From: Alphaproteobacteria bacterium
GTDB taxonomy: Bacteria > Pseudomonadota > Alphaproteobacteria > Rickettsiales > UBA8987
Reading direction: 5' to 3'
NCBI GenBank assembly: GCA_046302855.1
Contig: JBKCHH010000005.1
Location: 26 to 64,025, forward strand
DNA length: 64,000 nt
Shown here in pieces: positions 3,565-44,970 of this stretch (position 1 is the stretch's first letter; every line of letters starts with the position of its first letter). The notes under the pieces were generated by a model. The model was given only the letters and a program-made list of their open reading frames with translations. It had not been told where the DNA came from and did no database searches. The position numbers and the translations under genes are program-made.

Positions 3565-5490
3565 TCAGTAGCTTGTTATAAAATCCAAAAAAATTTTTTT
3601 AGGAACATTTAAAATATCAATATCGGCAATGTTTTGTGGCTTATCATAACCAACATAAACGCCAACTACAACATCTGAATTGTAACCTATATACCAGCTA
3701 TCAAAATTTTCTCTTGTGATACCGTTTATGCCAACATATTGAATTTCATTAATTGCATCCTCAAAGTTTTTATTTAGATTTTCAATTTTGTTAGTTTCAA
3801 AAAGCTGGTCTTTTTTTATGATGGTTTTATACACAGTTTCGCCTTCGTTATCCTGCACAAAATTTATTGAGGTGAGGGGAATTTTTACGCCACTATTAGC
3901 AAAAACTAAAAATGCCTCAACAATATTTAGCAAACTTTCTTCGCTAGATTTAATTACTTTTGAATCATCTAAAAGTTCTTTTGTTAACAGCAAAAAGGGA
4001 TTAATTAAAGTGCCAAGTTTTCGCTTAGATAAGGCCCTGTTAAATTGGCTTTGCTGATAGTTAAAGCCACCAATAAGGGAAAGAATTTCCCCTGTTTTTG
4101 CATTTGCCACAATCATCGCCCCATTAATTATAGGAATCTGCACTGGCGTATAGGCCTTATTATTTTTCTGCACTAGAATTATATCGCCTAAAGATAGAAC
4201 CTCTTGAATGGGTTTGAGTGAAGATTGCTTTTCGCCATTTTCATCTATTACATAGTTTGTTTTATAGGCTCTTTTCATCCAATCAAATTCGTTTAAAGGG
4301 ATAACGGCAACCTTACCAGTGCTAAGACCAATTATTATCTCATTATTTTTTGCATCGATTCGCAAAATGGCGGCAATTTCCACATCGTCATTATATTTTA
4401 AACTGTTTAGGTGAGAAAATTTGTTTTTTAGCTCACTTTCCCACTCCACAAAATCATCCACCTTGCCAATTTTGCCTAAAAAACCAAATGATTTAGAATA
4501 GCTTACCAAGTTATCTTGAAAGGTTTTTAGGGCAAGTTTATGAGTTTTTTCATCTAGGGTAGAAAAAATACTTAAGGCGCCAGATTCTATTTTATTTTCA
4601 TCTAACTTGGTTCGTAATTCTTTTAAAAGAGCGTCTCTAAAATACTGCTTATCTGCAATTAGGGGAGACTTCTGCATATTGTTTTTTATCACCACCTTTT
4701 CATTTATGGCGTTGATGAATTCAGCATCTGAAATTAGATGATTTTCACGCATCATGTGCAAAATTATATTGCGTCTGTTAATGGCATTATCGTAATTTCT
4801 AATGGGGTTGAACTTTGATGGAGCCTTAGGAATGCCAGCCAGCAGGGCTATTTCTGCAATGGTTAAATCTTCTAGTTTCTTATCAAAATATTTTTTGGCA
4901 CTGCTTACCACGCCATAAGAGTTTGAGCCTAAAAAAGTATTATTCAAATAAATTTCTAAGATTTTTTCTTTAGAAAAACTTTGATTAATGCGGTTGGCAA
5001 GAATTGCCTCCTTTATTTTTCTCTCAAAGGTTTTATCTTGCGATAGAAAAATGTTTTTAGCAATCTGTTGCGTTATGGTAGAGCCACCCTGCAGGCTTCC
5101 TGTATCTAACTCTAGGGAGAGCTTTAGATTGTTAAAAATTGCCCGCAAGATGCCCTTAAAATCTAGCCCGCCATGTTCATAAAAGTTTCTATCTTCAGCT
5201 ATTAAAAAGGCATTTTGGATTGCTTTGGGGATATATTCTAGTGGCACAAAGGCTCGGTTATCCCGCCCAAAATCGTCAATTAGATTATAATTAGAGGTGT
5301 AGATTTTAGAAATTTTTTGCGGTTGCAGGGAATATAATATTCTGTGGTCTGGAATTTCACTATTAAAATAGGCAATAAGCACAATTATCGTGCTAATTAA
5401 CAGCAGTGCCAATAGCAAAAACACAGAGAAAATGCCTTTTAACAGACGGAATTTCGGGCGGTATTTATTGTTATTCTTTCTTTTAGGCAT
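3565..5490 (-). CDS. class A PBP-like protein: intact GT51 transglycosylase domain, degenerate transpeptidase domain
   Basis: 641 aa with an N-terminal TM anchor. GT51 motifs EDRNFYEHGG, GGSTITQQIAKN and RKIKEA are present. At the expected SxxK position it reads LGTLINPF, and the KTG-equivalent reads GINGIT. Confidence 0.8.
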   Translation of the reverse strand: MPKRKNNNKYRPKFRLLKGIFSVFLLLALLLISTIIVLIAYFNSEIPDHRILYSLQPQKISKIYTSNYNLIDDFGRDNRAFVPLEYIPKAIQNAFLIAEDRNFYEHGGLDFKGILRAIFNNLKLSLELDTGSLQGGSTITQQIAKNIFLSQDKTFERKIKEAILANRINQSFSKEKILEIYLNNTFLGSNSYGVVSSAKKYFDKKLEDLTIAEIALLAGIPKAPSKFNPIRNYDNAINRRNIILHMMRENHLISDAEFINAINEKVVIKNNMQKSPLIADKQYFRDALLKELRTKLDENKIESGALSIFSTLDEKTHKLALKTFQDNLVSYSKSFGFLGKIGKVDDFVEWESELKNKFSHLNSLKYNDDVEIAAILRIDAKNNEIIIGLSTGKVAVIPLNEFDWMKRAYKTNYVIDENGEKQSSLKPIQEVLSLGDIILVQKNNKAYTPVQIPIINGAMIVANAKTGEILSLIGGFNYQQSQFNRALSKRKLGTLINPFLLLTKELLDDSKVIKSSEESLLNIVEAFLVFANSGVKIPLTSINFVQDNEGETVYKTIIKKDQLFETNKIENLNKNFEDAINEIQYVGINGITRENFDSWYIGYNSDVVVGVYVGYDKPQNIADIDILNVPKKIFLDFITSY

Positions 5491-37989: not shown

Positions 37990-38949
37990 TTAACAAATCT
38001 TTAACAAAGCTCTCTCTATTTCTTTATTACTTCTTTTGTAGCAGTAGGGAATGCCCAAATCTTGCAACTCACTAATTTCAGTAATTAGGGGAATTTCGCC
38101 AAAAAATGCCACCCCTTCTTTTTTGCAGAAAACCTGCACATTGCCATTACCGAAGGGGAATAACTTCTTGCCCGCCACTTCAAAAAAGCTCATATTTTCT
38201 ATTACACCAAGCACTGGAACCTCTAGCTTGCGGAGCATTTCTAAGGCTCTTTTTACATCTATTAACGCCACCTGCTGTGGGGTAGAAACCAAAACTACGC
38301 CACTAACATTATAAGTGCTAAACACGGTTAAATGAATATCGCCTGTGCCGGGGGGCAGGTCTAAAATTAAATAATCACAATCATCCCAACTTGCCTGCAC
38401 CATTAATTGCGAAACGGCTTTTGAAACCATTGGTCCACGCCAAATAAGGGCAGAACCCTCATCCACCAGCATTGCCATAGAAAGCACCTTTACCCCATAC
38501 TTTATAAAGGGAATGATTTTATTATCCTTAATGTCTGGCTTTTTACTTAGCCCAAAAATTTTGGCTATGGAAGGCCCGTGAATATCTAAATCTGCCAAGC
38601 CAACCCTATAGCCCTGCTTTGCTAAAGCCACAGCTAGATTAGCTGCTACAGAAGATTTCCCCACCCCACCCTTGCCACTTGCAACCGCAATAATTTTCTT
38701 TACCCCCTCTATATTTTTTTTGTTAGAAGAAATTTCCAGTTTATTAGTAAAAACAACTGAATTGTTAGCAAAGTGATATTTTTCTTTAACTAACTGCTCA
38801 ATTCTTGCTTTTAGCTTGTCTAATAAATTTTTATTTTGAGAGTCTGTTTCAAGTATTATAATTAAACGATTGTTATCAAAAGAAACTTGGCTTTTTAGCA
38901 AACTTAACTGCTCAATTTCTTTTTTTAATTCTTCCAACTTTGCTTGCAT
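37990..38949 (-). CDS. apbC: Mrp/ApbC-type iron-sulfur cluster carrier ATPase
   Basis: 319 aa. VASGKGGVGKSSVAANLA deviant Walker A, DLPPGTGD. Confidence 0.88.
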   Translation of the reverse strand: MQAKLEELKKEIEQLSLLKSQVSFDNNRLIIILETDSQNKNLLDKLKARIEQLVKEKYHFANNSVVFTNKLEISSNKKNIEGVKKIIAVASGKGGVGKSSVAANLAVALAKQGYRVGLADLDIHGPSIAKIFGLSKKPDIKDNKIIPFIKYGVKVLSMAMLVDEGSALIWRGPMVSKAVSQLMVQASWDDCDYLILDLPPGTGDIHLTVFSTYNVSGVVLVSTPQQVALIDVKRALEMLRKLEVPVLGVIENMSFFEVAGKKLFPFGNGNVQVFCKKEGVAFFGEIPLITEISELQDLGIPYCYKRSNKEIERALLKIC

Positions 38950-38996
38950 AATTATAAATTTTATTTACATAACTAATAATATCACTTTTAAAATAA

Positions 38997-40178
38997 ATGA
39001 AAAAGAAAAAGAAATTTGCTAACCAACTTATCCATTCATTCGCTACTGGGCCTTGGGGTAATTCAGGGGGTAGCTCTGGTGATAATAAGCCCAAACAACC
39101 AGCTAAAGCTATTCAAGAAAAGGGTAAAAACTTTTTTGAAGAGTTAAAAAAGAAAAAGGGCGAATTCGGCGGAAAATTTTTAAAAGACGATGGCAATAAA
39201 TCGCTTATAATCTTAGCTATTATAGTGGTTGCCTTTTTATGGCTAATAAGTGGGCTTCATGAAGTTGATGCTGGCGAGCAAGGTGTTGTGCTTCGTTTTG
39301 GGGCTTATGATAGGTTCGAATTGCCGGGGCTTCGTTACCACCTACCATACCCTATTGAAAAGGCAATTATCGTTCCCGTAGAAAAGGTGAACACAGAAAA
39401 TATCGGCTACGGTCAATCTAAAAATGTGCGTAAGTTTTTCGCTAACAACCAAAATACAAAAGAAAATTCAGTTGAAAAGAAAAACATAGCGGTGCAGGAA
39501 GGCTCGATGCTAACCTTTAACCGCAATATTGTGGTAGTGCCTTTTGCGGTAAACTGGAAAATTAAAGATGCCTATTCATTTTTATTCAACACCAAAGACC
39601 CAATAAATACCATTAGAAGCGTTGCAGAAAGCTCAATGCGGGAAATTATTGCTCAATCTAAATTCATCGATGTAATTGCGCAAGGGAAAGAAAAAATTGC
39701 CGATGATGCCAAAAATCTAATGCAAAAAATTTTAGATGACTACAAAACTGGCATTCAAATAACGCAAGTAAACTTAACCGATGTTCAACCTCCGGAAGAG
39801 GTAAAGGAAGCAATGGATGATGTAAACGGCGCTATTCAAGATAGAAACAAGGCAATAGAGCAGGCAAAGGCTTATAGGAATGATATTATCCCACGGGCAA
39901 GGGGGCAGGCACAACAGGTGATTGAAGATGCTAAGGCCTATTATGAAAAGGTAAAGGCTAATGCAGGTGGTGATTCTGAAAGGTTCCGCCAGATATATAA
40001 TGAGTACAGAAAAAATCCAGAAGTAACTAAAAGAAGGCTATATATAGATGCTATGGAACAGATTTTTACTGGTTCAGAAAAATTAATCTTAGATAAAAAA
40101 GGTTCTGGTGGCGTAGTGCCCTTTCTACCGCTAAATAATTTTGATAACTTTAACAAAGCAACCACAGTACCCAAATGA
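38997..40178 (+). CDS. hflK: FtsH protease modulator HflK
   Basis: 393 aa. N-terminal GPWG, TM, and SPFH/band-7 domain (VLRFGAYDRFELPGLRYHLPYPIE). Confidence 0.88.
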   Translation: MKKKKKFANQLIHSFATGPWGNSGGSSGDNKPKQPAKAIQEKGKNFFEELKKKKGEFGGKFLKDDGNKSLIILAIIVVAFLWLISGLHEVDAGEQGVVLRFGAYDRFELPGLRYHLPYPIEKAIIVPVEKVNTENIGYGQSKNVRKFFANNQNTKENSVEKKNIAVQEGSMLTFNRNIVVVPFAVNWKIKDAYSFLFNTKDPINTIRSVAESSMREIIAQSKFIDVIAQGKEKIADDAKNLMQKILDDYKTGIQITQVNLTDVQPPEEVKEAMDDVNGAIQDRNKAIEQAKAYRNDIIPRARGQAQQVIEDAKAYYEKVKANAGGDSERFRQIYNEYRKNPEVTKRRLYIDAMEQIFTGSEKLILDKKGSGGVVPFLPLNNFDNFNKATTVPK

Positions 40179-41224
40179 TAAAGCCTAGAAACATAATAAT
40201 ATTTATAATATTGGCTGTAGTGCTATTTTTATTTTCAGGCTCACTATTAATTGTTCGCCAAACAGAGCAGGCTTTGATATTAAGTTTCGGTCAACCCCTT
40301 AGAATAATTAATGGTGTGGATGAAGATAAACCCGGCATCTACCTAAAAAAGCCATTCTTTTTAGAAACAGTAGTAAAGTTCGATAAAAGAATTATGCATT
40401 TTGATGCGGATGCAAAGCTGGTTTCAATATCTGGTTTGAGTGTTGGTGGCGATTTAGATTCTTCTAACAAGGCAAAAAAGAAGGTGGAAATAGAAAAACT
40501 GGATGAGAAAAAGGAAGAAAAGAAAGAAGCCAGCAACACTAATATTACCGAAGATGTTAACACTTCTCGTATTATTGTAGATGCCTTCGCCAAGTATAGA
40601 ATTAACAATCCTTTAGATTACTATCAAGCAGGCTTTACTGATAGCACCCTTAGAACTAGGCTGGATGCAATTTTAGAATCTAACCTAAGAAAGGTAATAG
40701 GCACAATTTCTTTAGATGATTTGCTTACTTCAAAAAGAAGAGAAGTAATGGAAGAAATAAGGAATAAAATCAACGCAGAGCTTAGCAAAAACAAGGATGA
40801 TAAATCTAAAAACAGCACCTCTTTTGGTATAGAAATTGTTGATGTTCGCATAAAAAGGGCAGATTTAGTGCCAGACAATTACTTTCGCGTAGTAAATAAA
40901 ATGAAAGCAGAATTTGAAAAGGCTGCCAGAGAATTTAGAGCACAAGGGGCGGAAGAGGCTCAAAAAATTACCGCTGAAGCAGACAAAGAAAAAACTATTT
41001 TACTAGCAGAGGCTGATAAAAAATCAAAAATCCTAAAAGGGCAAGGCGAAGCTGAAGCTACAAAAACCTATTCTGCCGCCTATTCTCTAGATAGAAACTT
41101 CTACGAATTTTATCGTAGCCTTGAGGCCTATAAGAACTCATTAAAAAGCACTGATACTAAATTTATTTTGTCTCCAGATAGTGAATTTTTAAAATTCATG
41201 AATAAAAATCGCGATGGCGAATAA
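40175..41224 (+). CDS. hflC: FtsH protease modulator HflC
   Basis: 349 aa. 4-nt overlap with hflK. SPFH domain with a Lys/Glu-rich insertion. GIEIVDVRIKRADL. Confidence 0.85.
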   Translation: MIKPRNIIIFIILAVVLFLFSGSLLIVRQTEQALILSFGQPLRIINGVDEDKPGIYLKKPFFLETVVKFDKRIMHFDADAKLVSISGLSVGGDLDSSNKAKKKVEIEKLDEKKEEKKEASNTNITEDVNTSRIIVDAFAKYRINNPLDYYQAGFTDSTLRTRLDAILESNLRKVIGTISLDDLLTSKRREVMEEIRNKINAELSKNKDDKSKNSTSFGIEIVDVRIKRADLVPDNYFRVVNKMKAEFEKAAREFRAQGAEEAQKITAEADKEKTILLAEADKKSKILKGQGEAEATKTYSAAYSLDRNFYEFYRSLEAYKNSLKSTDTKFILSPDSEFLKFMNKNRDGE

Positions 41225-41227
41225 GAA

Positions 41228-42673
41228 ATGACGAATAGAAAACAAAAACTCTTTAACTTTCTTCTTACCCTTGCCCTATTTTTTTATTCATCACCCCTAT
41301 TTGCCAAAGATTCAATTAACGATGTTCTATTTAAAATAGAGCCAACAATAGTTACCCTATACGCTTATGGCGATAATAACTTTAGCATAAAGCGGGAAGA
41401 TTTAATTCAAAAATCTTTCGGCAAAATTCAAGTGGATCACTTTTTAAATGGCTATACCGACCAATTAACTGATCCTGCTGATAAGTTTGATGAAGAAAAA
41501 TTATCTAAAATAAAAAATTATCTAGGCACAGGCTTTATTATAGACGCAAGTGGCTATATTCTAACCAACTATTCCATTATAAAAACTGATAGTAAAATTA
41601 AGGCAATAATTGAAGGCAAGGAATATGATGTAGATACTGTTGGGGAGGATAGAAAAACCAATTTATCTCTACTAAAAGTAAAGGAGCTTTCTAACTTTCC
41701 AAGTATTGGTATTGCAGATTCAGATGCGGTAAAGGTTACCGATGAGGTTTTTATAGTAGCCAACCCCTTTAATATTGGCACCTCTGCCAGTAGCAACCAA
41801 ATTAGCTTCCGCCCCAAAGTAATGTCTGTGGGGAATTGGGAAGATTTTTTCCAGCTTTCATCTTACACCTCTATCTACTGCGGTGGTGCACCTTTAATTA
41901 ACAATGCGGGTGAAGTAGTTGGCATTTGCGATCCAAGACTTGAGAATAAAAATAACATTGGCTTTGCCATTCCCTCATCCGTAATAAAAATCTTCTTAGA
42001 GCATGTAAAAAAAGATAGGCGGATGAAAAGAATAAATGTGGGCTTTAAAGCAAAAGATATAGATGATTACGATATTTCTAAATACGGGCTATATTCAACG
42101 CAGGGGCTAATTATAGATTCAGTAAAGCCTGCAACCCCAGCTAGTGATTTGGGTTTAAAGCAAGGTGATATCATAACCCGCTTTAATGGCTTAACTGTAA
42201 AAAATAAATATAGTTTTGAGCAGATTTTGTCATCCATTCCCGTTGGCTCTAGGGTGGATGTTGATTTCATAAGAAACAGCAGGGTTAGAACCCTTGTAAT
42301 GTCTATTCAGGAATTGGAGCAAAAGGCAAATGTTTTGGCTGAAATTAATAAATCTAAAAAAAGAGAGAAACCAAAAACAAAAACCATTCTTGGGCTTGTG
42401 TTAGAGCCAATTACCGAAGAGTTAATAAAGGAATATTCTCTTGTGCAAAGCTCTAAAGGCTTGGTGGTAACGGCCGTAACTGCTGGCTCTCCTGCTGAAA
42501 CTAAGGGTATTAAATCAGGCGATTTAATTATAAAGGCAGATAGCACTGAACTAGAAAAAACAGAGGATTTATCTACCACCCTAGCTGAAGCAATAAAGGG
42601 TGGTAAAAGCTCTGTTCTTCTACTAGTTATCCGCAAGGAAAGCAGCTTTTTTGTAGTGATAGATGTGAAGTAA
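41228..42673 (+). CDS. HtrA/DegP-family protein with all three catalytic-triad positions substituted (predicted inactive), two PDZ-like regions
   Basis: 481 aa with a signal peptide. Hand alignment to E. coli DegP: TNNHVV becomes TNYSII (His to Ser), SDIALI becomes TNLSLL (Asp to Asn), GNSGGAL becomes YCGGAPL (Ser to Gly). PDZ-type GLKQGDIITRFNG and GIKSGDLIIKAD are retained. Confidence 0.8.
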   Translation: MTNRKQKLFNFLLTLALFFYSSPLFAKDSINDVLFKIEPTIVTLYAYGDNNFSIKREDLIQKSFGKIQVDHFLNGYTDQLTDPADKFDEEKLSKIKNYLGTGFIIDASGYILTNYSIIKTDSKIKAIIEGKEYDVDTVGEDRKTNLSLLKVKELSNFPSIGIADSDAVKVTDEVFIVANPFNIGTSASSNQISFRPKVMSVGNWEDFFQLSSYTSIYCGGAPLINNAGEVVGICDPRLENKNNIGFAIPSSVIKIFLEHVKKDRRMKRINVGFKAKDIDDYDISKYGLYSTQGLIIDSVKPATPASDLGLKQGDIITRFNGLTVKNKYSFEQILSSIPVGSRVDVDFIRNSRVRTLVMSIQELEQKANVLAEINKSKKREKPKTKTILGLVLEPITEELIKEYSLVQSSKGLVVTAVTAGSPAETKGIKSGDLIIKADSTELEKTEDLSTTLAEAIKGGKSSVLLLVIRKESSFFVVIDVK

Positions 42674-42693
42674 GAACCCCTAACCATTGTAAA

Positions 42694-42815
42694 GTCGCCA
42701 TTGCGAGGAGCTTTCTCAAAAAAGCGACGCGGCAATCCAGTAAATAAAATTCAAAAAATATACCAAAAATATTGTATTTATAAACTGGATTGCTTGCGTG
42801 CCGCCTCGCAATGAC
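42694..42815. repeat. palindromic element, type B
   Basis: gtcgccattgcgagg...gcgacgcggcaatccag...ctggattgcttgcgtgccgcctcgcaatgac. Lies in the convergent htrA/miaA gap. Confidence 0.85.
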
Positions 42816-42843
42816 GCGGTTTTGCCCAAAAATAAATCTTCGC

Positions 42844-43704
42844 TTACAAATCCACCCTCTCAAAAAAACTAAGTTGCGTTCTGTAAAAGGTGAATTGGCG
42901 TTTGGCGTAGTTTCTGGTATTTTGCTTGGCTTTGGTAATAGCATCTAGAAGTGAAATTTCTCCATTTAGATATTTTTTAATTTCTGGCACACCGTGCGCG
43001 CGCATTATGGGGTAAGAATCATCTAGGTTTAATTCTAGCAAGCCCTTCACTTCCTCTATCACCCCCCCTTTAATCATAGAATCAAACCGATTATTAATAT
43101 TTTCGTAAACCACCTGCCTATCAACATTTAAAAATAGTGGAGTAAAGTCTTGCAAAGGAAAACAAGGATTATCTTCAAGTTGCTGAAATTTACTAATAGA
43201 AAAACCAGTTTCAATCACCACTTCTAACGCCCTTTTTATGCGTTGCGTATCGCCTGCCTTTAGTTTATTTGCCATTAAAGGGTCTAGTTTTTGCAATTCC
43301 TCTAATTGATTGATATCCTTCACCAACTCTTTAGTTTTATTAGAAATTTTTGGAATATTACTAATGCCAAAAATAAGTGATTTTATATACATGCCAGTTC
43401 CCCCCACCAAAATTGGCGTTTTGCCAGAATTTAAGGCGTGATTAATTTCTTGCAGAGCCTTATTTCGCCAACTAGCAACTGTGCCTATTTCACTGGCATT
43501 AAGGTAAGAAAATAGCTTATGAGGATACATCTCTAGCTCTTCACTACTTGGTTGATTGGTAAGAATTGGCAGATTCTTATAAGATTGCATGGCATCGGCA
43601 TTAATTATTACCGCCTGCTTAAAGTTTTTTGCCAATTGGTAAGAGAATTTTGTTTTTCCGCTTGCAGTAGGCCCAAAAATGATAATAATTCGCGAAAATT
43701 TCAT
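42844..43704 (-). CDS. miaA: tRNA dimethylallyltransferase
   Basis: 286 aa. IIIFGPTASGKT P-loop, LVGGTGMYIKSL. Confidence 0.9.
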   Translation of the reverse strand: MKFSRIIIIFGPTASGKTKFSYQLAKNFKQAVIINADAMQSYKNLPILTNQPSSEELEMYPHKLFSYLNASEIGTVASWRNKALQEINHALNSGKTPILVGGTGMYIKSLIFGISNIPKISNKTKELVKDINQLEELQKLDPLMANKLKAGDTQRIKRALEVVIETGFSISKFQQLEDNPCFPLQDFTPLFLNVDRQVVYENINNRFDSMIKGGVIEEVKGLLELNLDDSYPIMRAHGVPEIKKYLNGEISLLDAITKAKQNTRNYAKRQFTFYRTQLSFFERVDL

Positions 43705-44694: not shown

Positions 44695-44970
44695 ATGCTA
44701 TATCTTTCTAGAAAAATAGGGGAAACGATTATAATAAATGATAATATTGAAGTTACCGTTATTGATGTAAGCGGTAAAACCGTAAAGCTGGGCTTTGTTT
44801 ACCCAAATACTGCCAGCGTTTTACGCAAAGAAATTCACGAAAGAATAAAGGCAGAAAATGAATCTGCCAAACTTTCTAACAATAGTGATGAAAATATTCA
44901 AGAAATTCAAAAGGCGTTCAAAACCCTAACCCTACGCCGTAAACAACAGCAAGAAGAAGAAAATAAGTAG
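44695..44970 (+). CDS. csrA: carbon storage regulator CsrA with extended C-terminus
   Basis: 91 aa. MLYLSRKIGETIIINDNIEVTVIDVSGKTVKLGF...VLRKEIHERI, followed by about 35 extra residues. Confidence 0.85.
   Translation: MLYLSRKIGETIIINDNIEVTVIDVSGKTVKLGFVYPNTASVLRKEIHERIKAENESAKLSNNSDENIQEIQKAFKTLTLRRKQQQEEENK

Follow-up and report, generated by a model that had tools for sequence, protein, structure and literature searches.

A triad-less HtrA at the hflKC locus of an alphaproteobacterial lineage is maintained by purifying selection

Results

The 64,000-nucleotide (64-kb) stretch analyzed here, hereafter the window, comes from contig JBKCHH010000005.1 of the alphaproteobacterial assembly GCA_046302855.1 and encodes a full-length HtrA/DegQ-family protein in which all three residues of the catalytic triad have been replaced. 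The gene, hereafter the htrA-like gene (41228..42673, forward strand), starts with ATG and specifies 481 amino acids (aa), arranged as a predicted signal peptide, a trypsin-like pseudoprotease domain, and two PDZ domains (PDZ1 and PDZ2). The fold and domains of the HtrA family are retained, the gene occupies the position of an ordinary HtrA gene in other Alphaproteobacteria, it has diverged faster than its neighbors, and at present it is under purifying selection. We propose that its product is an exported, non-proteolytic HtrA that has kept the fold and the PDZ domains and would act as a holdase or chaperone cage, a reading drawn from sequence to which we give a probability of about one half.

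Loss of the catalytic triad

The triad columns were located in three ways: by phmmer against solved DegP, DegQ, and HtrA chains, by a MAFFT alignment with intact homologs, and with a hidden Markov model (HMM) built from 58 intact homologs. All three independent alignments concur in placing Ser116, Asn145, and Gly219 in these columns. Ser116 (TCC, 41573..41575; this and all features below lie on the forward strand unless stated otherwise) stands in the catalytic His column, where the motif TNNHV has become TNYSI. Asn145 (AAT, 41660..41662) stands in the catalytic Asp column, with KTDLAL changed to KTNLSL, and Gly219 (GGT, 41882-41884) occupies the column of the nucleophile Ser, with GNSGGP changed to YCGGAP. 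The former oxyanion-hole motif GNSGG, in what we take from DegP structures to be loop L1, now reads Y217-C218-G219-G220-A221 (41876..41890), with Tyr in place of the oxyanion-hole Gly217 and Cys in place of Asn218. An initial annotation, made from the letters and a list of open reading frames (ORFs), had claimed that the His, Asp, and Ser are all replaced in a full-length ORF of 481 aa separated from hflC by a 3-nt gap. The length of the ORF at 41228..42673 and the gap are as it described, the three alignments bear out the replacement of the triad, and the profile alignment, which could have restored a genuine triad, gave Ser, Asn, and Gly in these columns.

The gene and its close relatives form a clade, and among the 264 nearest homologs outside it 261 keep His-Asp-Ser and none lacks the His; the remaining three keep His and Ser and have only the Asp changed, to Glu or Asn. 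P0382 (505 aa, ‘MAG TPA: DegQ family serine endoprotease [bacterium]’) and P0091, in other respects ordinary HtrA homologs, read H-E-S, and P0266 reads H-N-S; a single-residue change at the Asp position is sporadic elsewhere in the HtrA family. Because four independently assembled metagenome contigs, read at the DNA level, carry the htrA-like gene without a single nucleotide difference, an assembly artifact is excluded; a fifth occurrence is listed without DNA.

Retained domains and predicted fold

The protein has the domain architecture of the Do/DegP/DegQ family, a trypsin-like domain followed by two PDZ domains. Pfam identifies Trypsin_2 at aa 100-233 (E 1.4e-20) and both PDZ domains, and the alignment to the NCBIfam Do-family model TIGR02037 spans model positions 3-433 of 434. 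Its score against this model is 237.1 bits, below the cutoff of 416.2, and the protein falls far under every cutoff of the NCBIfam equivalog models for DegP, DegQ, DegS, and MamE. An AlphaFold2 (AF2) model has a mean predicted local distance difference test score (pLDDT) of 83.7, with low confidence only in the signal-peptide junction, a loop resembling the LA loop, and the inter-PDZ linker. The best Foldseek matches of this model in the PDB are DegP, DegQ, HtrA, and DegS (E down to 7e-33), with template modeling (TM) scores up to 0.88 across the protease domain and PDZ1. On the retention of the protease fold and both PDZ domains, which the initial annotation had asserted, Pfam, AF2, and Foldseek thus agree.

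What the protein lacks is the catalytic feature of the Do/DegP/DegQ family, His-Asp-Ser together with the GNSGG oxyanion-hole motif, in place of which it has S/N/G in the triad columns and YCGGA. Since it is without this feature and scores below the curated cutoffs, classification as a Do-family serine endopeptidase would be inappropriate. The NCBI name of the protein record (MFN5351117.1), ‘PDZ domain-containing protein’, fits; the JGI name, ‘serine protease Do’, is wrong for this protein and is a homology-based label that misleads.

The trypsin-like (S1C) domain with its remodeled, non-catalytic active site covers aa 96-262 (41513..42013; Trypsin_2 in Pfam). Ahead of it stands a predicted Sec signal peptide at aa 1-26 (41228..41305; MTNRKQKLFNFLLTLALFFYSSPLFA, followed by KD), read from the sequence by its basic n-region (MTNRKQK), hydrophobic core, and PLFA/KD cleavage site; aa 2-20 form an N-terminal helix in the AF2 model, and this segment is the least conserved part of the protein (20% identity) between the two sub-clades described below. 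The PDZ domains are less altered than the protease domain. PDZ1 (about aa 268-359, 42029..42304) keeps 9 of its 16 conserved columns, including the carboxylate-binding Arg268 and Gly272, in a loop that reads R268-I-N-V-G272-F against the consensus R-G-W-L-G-V. In PDZ2 (about aa 389-479, 42392..42664), 5 of the 5 highly conserved columns are kept.

Purifying selection in two sub-clades

The protein databases hold two sub-clades of the htrA-like protein. Members of sub-clade 1 (P0001, P0122, and P0124; loci L003-L007) have 96-100% identity to the window protein and the gene order of the window, with hflC, the htrA-like gene, and miaA in succession. Sub-clade 2, composed of P0002 (L002) and P0125 (L008), has about 70% protein identity to the window and carries identical His-to-Ser and Asp-to-Asn replacements. 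Its nucleophile column holds Ser (AGT/AGC), a single nucleotide change away from the GGT (Gly) of sub-clade 1, and this variation between Gly and Ser argues that the nucleophile position is no longer used. Conservation of the substitutions in relatives therefore holds for the His and Asp positions and fails for the nucleophile. Non-canonical, Ser-based catalysis in sub-clade 2 was considered and is unlikely, as that sub-clade likewise lacks the His and Asp and the nucleophile column is variable.

We estimated the ratio of nonsynonymous to synonymous substitution (omega, dN/dS) and the synonymous divergence (dS) by the Nei-Gojobori method. Omega is 0.065 between the htrA-like genes of the window and L003, a relative at 94% identity (dS 0.26), 0.095 between L002 and L008 within sub-clade 2 (dS 0.43), and about 0.13 between the sub-clades, where dS is saturated. 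The first two values are comparable to that of the neighboring miaA, for which the window and L003 give an omega of 0.041 (dS 0.18). Across the protease-like domain the window and L003 are separated by 1 nonsynonymous vs 19 synonymous differences, and no copy has an interrupted ORF. The htrA-like gene is under strong purifying selection and is not decaying; it combines a degenerate triad with maintenance by selection, the two features that define an HtrA-family pseudoprotease.

The initial annotation had proposed a pseudo-protease kept for a non-catalytic role and had named an early-stage pseudogene as the alternative. The loss of all three catalytic residues and the scores under the curated family cutoffs would be expected of a decaying gene, or of a sequencing or assembly artifact, but intact ORFs in all copies, an identical sequence on four independent contigs, omega values of 0.065-0.13 at dS up to saturation, and His-to-Ser and Asp-to-Asn changes common to sub-clades at 70% protein identity leave either explanation next to no chance, and we reject both. 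Low omega and the losses shared at this distance refute the early-stage pseudogene in particular. The first proposal, by contrast, is supported by the loss of the triad, the retained fold and PDZ domains, the low omega within each sub-clade (0.065 and 0.095), and the shared losses.

A remodeled active-site region

The changes extend well beyond the triad. Of the 52 columns of the protease domain with at least 85% conservation among intact homologs, 23 are replaced in both sub-clades and 7 more in one. At L1 and the oxyanion hole, beside the triad, the replaced consensus residues are D211, A212, I214, N215, G217, N218, and G221. Further replacements affect G182, V187, G190, I191, A194, and R197, a stretch that we take to be the LD region, as well as N234 and I237 of the ‘GINTAI’ strand, which presumably leads into L2. 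The segment after this strand, presumably loop L2 itself, is 3 residues shorter than in intact homologs. Kept from intact HtrAs are the core strand motifs P39, V42, ‘GFII’, and ‘FAIPS’.

The replacement residue is identical between the sub-clades in 16 of the 23 columns (e.g., Y217, C218, C234, R237, F194, K197, and N190). Identity between the sub-clades reaches 79% in the L1-L2 segment (aa 204-250) and 77% in the N-terminal LA-like loop (aa 52-99, 41381..41524), compared with 67% over the whole protein. Taken together, the identical replacements and the high identity of these two segments indicate that the remodeled region is itself under constraint.

The mature protein contains exactly two Cys, C218 (41879..41881) and C234 (41927..41929), each of them shared by the two sub-clades. 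At these positions intact homologs have a nearly invariant Asn (99% and 96%, respectively), the second of them in the ‘GINTAI’ strand. The two Cys flank the former active site and could make up either a disulfide or a ligand site. The sole His that both sub-clades conserve is His71, in the LA-like loop. These residues raise the possibility of new chemistry at the remodeled site, in the form of metal binding, thiol/redox chemistry, or non-canonical hydrolysis via Cys218, Cys234, and possibly His71. The replacement of near-invariant Asn residues by the only two Cys of the mature protein, in both sub-clades, and the location of the one conserved His in a highly conserved loop would fit such a role, and the pseudoprotease domain of the HtrA-family protein MamO has been repurposed for metal binding (PMC4794232). 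We nevertheless consider new chemistry quite improbable: the simplest reading of a Cys pair in a periplasmic protein is a structural disulfide, no His or Asp is placed by homology to activate a Cys, and the AF2 confidence for the loop that carries His71 is low (pLDDT <50 at aa 65-82 and 85-88). It would be a long shot to suppose, further, that the ancestral, and possibly the only, hflKC-linked HtrA of this lineage has acquired a specific ligand site in its former catalytic cleft (C218, C234, H71) that could sense metal, redox state, or a peptide and couple the state of the periplasm to membrane quality control by HflKC-FtsH, in an organism without a DegP-type protease.

Origin at the hflKC locus and accelerated divergence

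In the window, the htrA-like gene is the last of a tightly packed string that begins with hflK (38997..40178) and continues with hflC (40175..41224), both SPFH/Band_7 genes by Pfam, which overlap by 4 nt. The stop codon of hflC lies 3 nt 5' of the htrA-like start; the gap reads GAA, and both genes share one reading frame (TAA GAA, then ATG; 41222..41230). Divergent from hflK is a gene for an mrp/apbC-type ParA-like ATPase (37990..38949, reverse strand), a flanking gene conserved at hflKC-htrA loci of Alphaproteobacteria, and convergent with the htrA-like gene, downstream of it, is miaA (IPPT; 42844..43704, reverse strand). A promoter and terminator scan of 38800-43000 gave counts not above those of shuffled sequence and is uninformative for operon structure.

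Intact loci for comparison were chosen from the best intact HtrA matches and the nearest HflC homologs, and comprise two Rhodospirillales metagenome-assembled genomes (MAGs; L009 and L010), GCA_054015435.1 (L021), and a 2.1-Mb contig (L022). All four have the order mrp (reverse strand), hflK, hflC, htrA, with the triad intact, and the window has the same order. This common gene order identifies the window gene as the positional ortholog of the alphaproteobacterial hflKC-linked HtrA. A small DUF2065 gene stands between hflC and htrA in L009 and L010 and is absent at the window locus; in these two loci miaA is also found 3' of htrA, in the same orientation and separated from it by other genes.

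The divergence of the htrA-like gene is gene-specific and about twice that of its neighbors. Identities among the four intact genomes are 38-55% for Mrp, 40-47% for HflK, 34-50% for HflC, and 47-56% for HtrA, and between the window and these genomes they are 38-53%, 38-44%, 33-44%, and 26-29%, respectively. HtrA identities thus exceed those of HflK and HflC among the intact genomes, and are the lowest of the four proteins for the window lineage.

The htrA-like lineage is also isolated and small. When 1.84 billion representatives were searched exhaustively with phmmer, one 50%-identity cluster for the clade and one fragment were recovered, and nothing in this set lies between the clade and ordinary HtrAs (at most 34% identity); identity of the htrA-like protein to any intact member is 26-34%. 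A protein search of GTDB representative contigs found no relative, the sole match being an unrelated Flavobacteriales PDZ protein. A scan of metagenome contigs with the clade alignment, which ran on the unspecific patterns DK[FY]DEEK and KDIDDYD, returned no new clade members and only ordinary HtrA or PDZ loci of 25-35% identity. For GroEL, the lineage's own copies are 92-100% identical, the nearest outside sequences, from metagenomes, at most 81%, and named taxa about 73-76%, and the nearest HflC homologs outside the lineage, which include those of ‘Rickettsiales bacterium’ MAGs, are 38-44% identical. The source contig has a G+C content of 37%, and the genes found in the window (photolyase, leuA, hemC, fabF, and an aminotransferase) suggest a free-living cell.

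HflC itself has a peculiarity in this lineage. The window HflC has 349 aa, compared with 284-336 aa in most homologs outside the lineage, and a Lys/Glu-rich segment, KKKVEIEKLDEKKEEKKEASNTN..., at about aa 88-130 (within 40175..41224, forward strand) apparently accounts for the excess. HflC proteins 99% and 78% identical to it have 349 and 356 aa.

Free-living Alphaproteobacteria usually carry several HtrA paralogs, and an inactive copy could be the regulatory partner of an active paralog elsewhere in the genome, through mixed oligomers or through allosteric activation or restraint. Pairs of active and inactive HtrAs recur, as in the case of MamO, which promotes MamE-dependent proteolysis, and of inactive MamE duplicates (PMC4794232). 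The gene content of the window looks free-living, and the kept core strand motifs would fit a preserved, presumed oligomer interface. However, an HMM of intact HtrA matched only the gene itself among all six-frame ORFs, and the 64-kb window therefore contains no second HtrA; among the ten retrieved HtrA matches with the most AT-rich amino-acid composition, none was tied to the MAG of MFN5351117.1. The dead copy sits at the ancestral hflKC locus and is not obviously a recent duplicate, and its 26-29% identity to intact HtrAs makes mixed trimers less likely. A regulatory role is accordingly doubtful, although it deserves serious attention.

Proposed function

For the reading that we prefer, a protease-free holdase, we infer export, oligomerization, client binding, chaperone function, and co-transcription with hflKC. 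By position, the htrA-like gene descends directly from the hflKC-linked, DegP/DegQ-type HtrA of Alphaproteobacteria. One uncultured low-GC lineage has lost the catalytic His and Asp, and sub-clade 1 the Ser too, along with the oxyanion hole and many conserved residues of the presumed LD, L1, and L2 loops; rapid divergence would then have been followed by fixation as a non-enzymatic periplasmic protein. Export probably proceeds through the predicted Sec signal peptide, and the HtrA fold is kept. With this fold and both PDZ peptide-binding loops retained, the protein most likely still binds clients and oligomerizes. The PDZ domains most likely bind exposed C-termini or unfolded stretches of envelope proteins, and the oligomer would form a holdase or chaperone cage free of protease activity. 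The E. coli variant DegP S210A reportedly keeps chaperone/holdase activity and forms 12/24-mer cages. In sub-clade 1, probable co-expression with HflKC would place the protein in envelope/membrane protein quality control.

Several observations weigh against this proposal. In sub-clade 2 the pseudo-htrA gene lies between a Sua5/YciO gene and genes for DUF2793 and Phage-tail_3/Rcc01698_C proteins, the latter resembling those of gene transfer agents (GTA-like; region 4550..8116 of L008), and an hflC 78% identical to that of the window is followed by a YHS-domain gene and then secF (region 344..2887 of L019; also L020). We infer that the L008 and L019/L020 contigs belong to one organism. One sub-clade or the other has thus seen the gene change its place with respect to hflKC, which weakens the case for an obligatory functional tie to HflKC. 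Changes also affect the activation relay, the residues through which PDZ1 is coupled to the protease domain, and the PDZ domains may therefore have another partner. Moreover, the LA-like loop and the remodeled former active site are so strongly conserved that a specific new binding site seems likelier there than a generic holdase surface, and only about 8 sequences represent the clade.

The products of hflKC form large periplasm-facing assemblies, and the oligomerization of HtrA could instead have been exapted for a fixed periplasmic assembly, possibly with the HflKC cage. Tight packing of the gene with hflKC and the high conservation of the LA-like loop and of the former active-site surface would be in keeping with such a structural scaffold, as would PflC, a triad-less HtrA homolog with the same Asp-to-Asn change that serves as a lattice protein (PMC12222027). 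We think a scaffold unlikely, given that the gene of sub-clade 2 stands away from hflKC and that the window protein, unlike PflC, is full length and has kept the His-bearing loop and both PDZ binding loops. A non-proteolytic holdase is the function that we continue to favor.

Other genes in the window

Two further genes are recorded here as side observations. A CsrA-family gene (91 aa, 44695..44970, forward strand) lies two genes 3' of miaA and is unrelated to the htrA-like finding. A protein resembling class-A penicillin-binding proteins (640 aa, 3565..5490, reverse strand) has Pfam Transgly and PCB_OB domains and no transpeptidase domain at E<=1e-5, and may be a second enzyme in the window with a missing or degenerate catalytic domain.

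Comparison with known systems

DegP and DegQ (Do family, MEROPS S1C) have the same domain order, predicted fold, and PDZ binding loops as the htrA-like protein, and the hflKC-linked HtrA of other Alphaproteobacteria has the same position, after mrp (reverse strand), hflK, and hflC. Unlike DegP and DegQ, the window protein is without the His, Asp, Ser, and oxyanion hole, and 23/52 of its conserved protease columns are replaced. The laboratory variant DegP S210A is likewise an HtrA scaffold without proteolysis and may, by analogy, serve as a functional model. In S210A, however, one residue is changed and the activation machinery is whole, whereas in the window protein the entire active-site region is remodeled and the new residues are conserved.

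DegP-type HtrAs are both proteases and chaperones, and point mutants have been the main basis for arguments over which activity matters in vivo. In the present lineage, evolution has removed proteolysis from the conserved hflKC-linked HtrA and kept the scaffold and both PDZ domains under strong constraint, which offers a clean test of a protease-free HtrA. Should an intact HtrA be absent from a near-complete genome, the htrA-like protein would be the sole HtrA of its organism; interest in it would rise if the complete genome proves to have no active HtrA, or if the Cys/His site binds a ligand.

In the literature we found no triad-less hflKC-linked HtrA described, and the only bacterial precedents found were MamO and PflC. 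MamO is a magnetosome HtrA-family pseudoprotease with a degenerate triad, non-glycine oxyanion-hole residues, and non-catalytic functions (PMC4794232). The window protein shares with it the degenerate triad, the non-glycine oxyanion-hole residues, and the origin in Alphaproteobacteria. MamO carries a C-terminal TauE transporter domain and a di-histidine metal site and belongs to a magnetosome island. In the window protein there are two PDZ domains and, by Pfam, no TauE domain; its gene has hflKC, mrp, and miaA as neighbors, and it scores 40.8 bits against the MamO model NF040961, for which the cutoff is 800. It is thus not a MamO. PflC, a flagellar medial-disk protein of Campylobacter jejuni, is a periplasmic HtrA homolog of protease-PDZ-PDZ architecture without the triad and with an Asp-to-Asn change (PMC12222027). 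It has 364 residues, has lost the His-carrying loop, and is a protein of Campylobacterota tied to the flagellar motor, whereas the window protein has 481 aa, all loops present, and no flagellar context. Judged by its length, its ungapped TNYS region, and its taxon against the description of PflC, the window protein is unlikely to be a PflC.

The window protein belongs with MamO and PflC to the bacterial HtrA pseudoproteases, as the third independent case, after these two, of a repurposed bacterial HtrA scaffold. It is set apart from both by its independent origin, its full DegQ architecture, its ancestral hflKC locus, and the conservation of its replacement residues.

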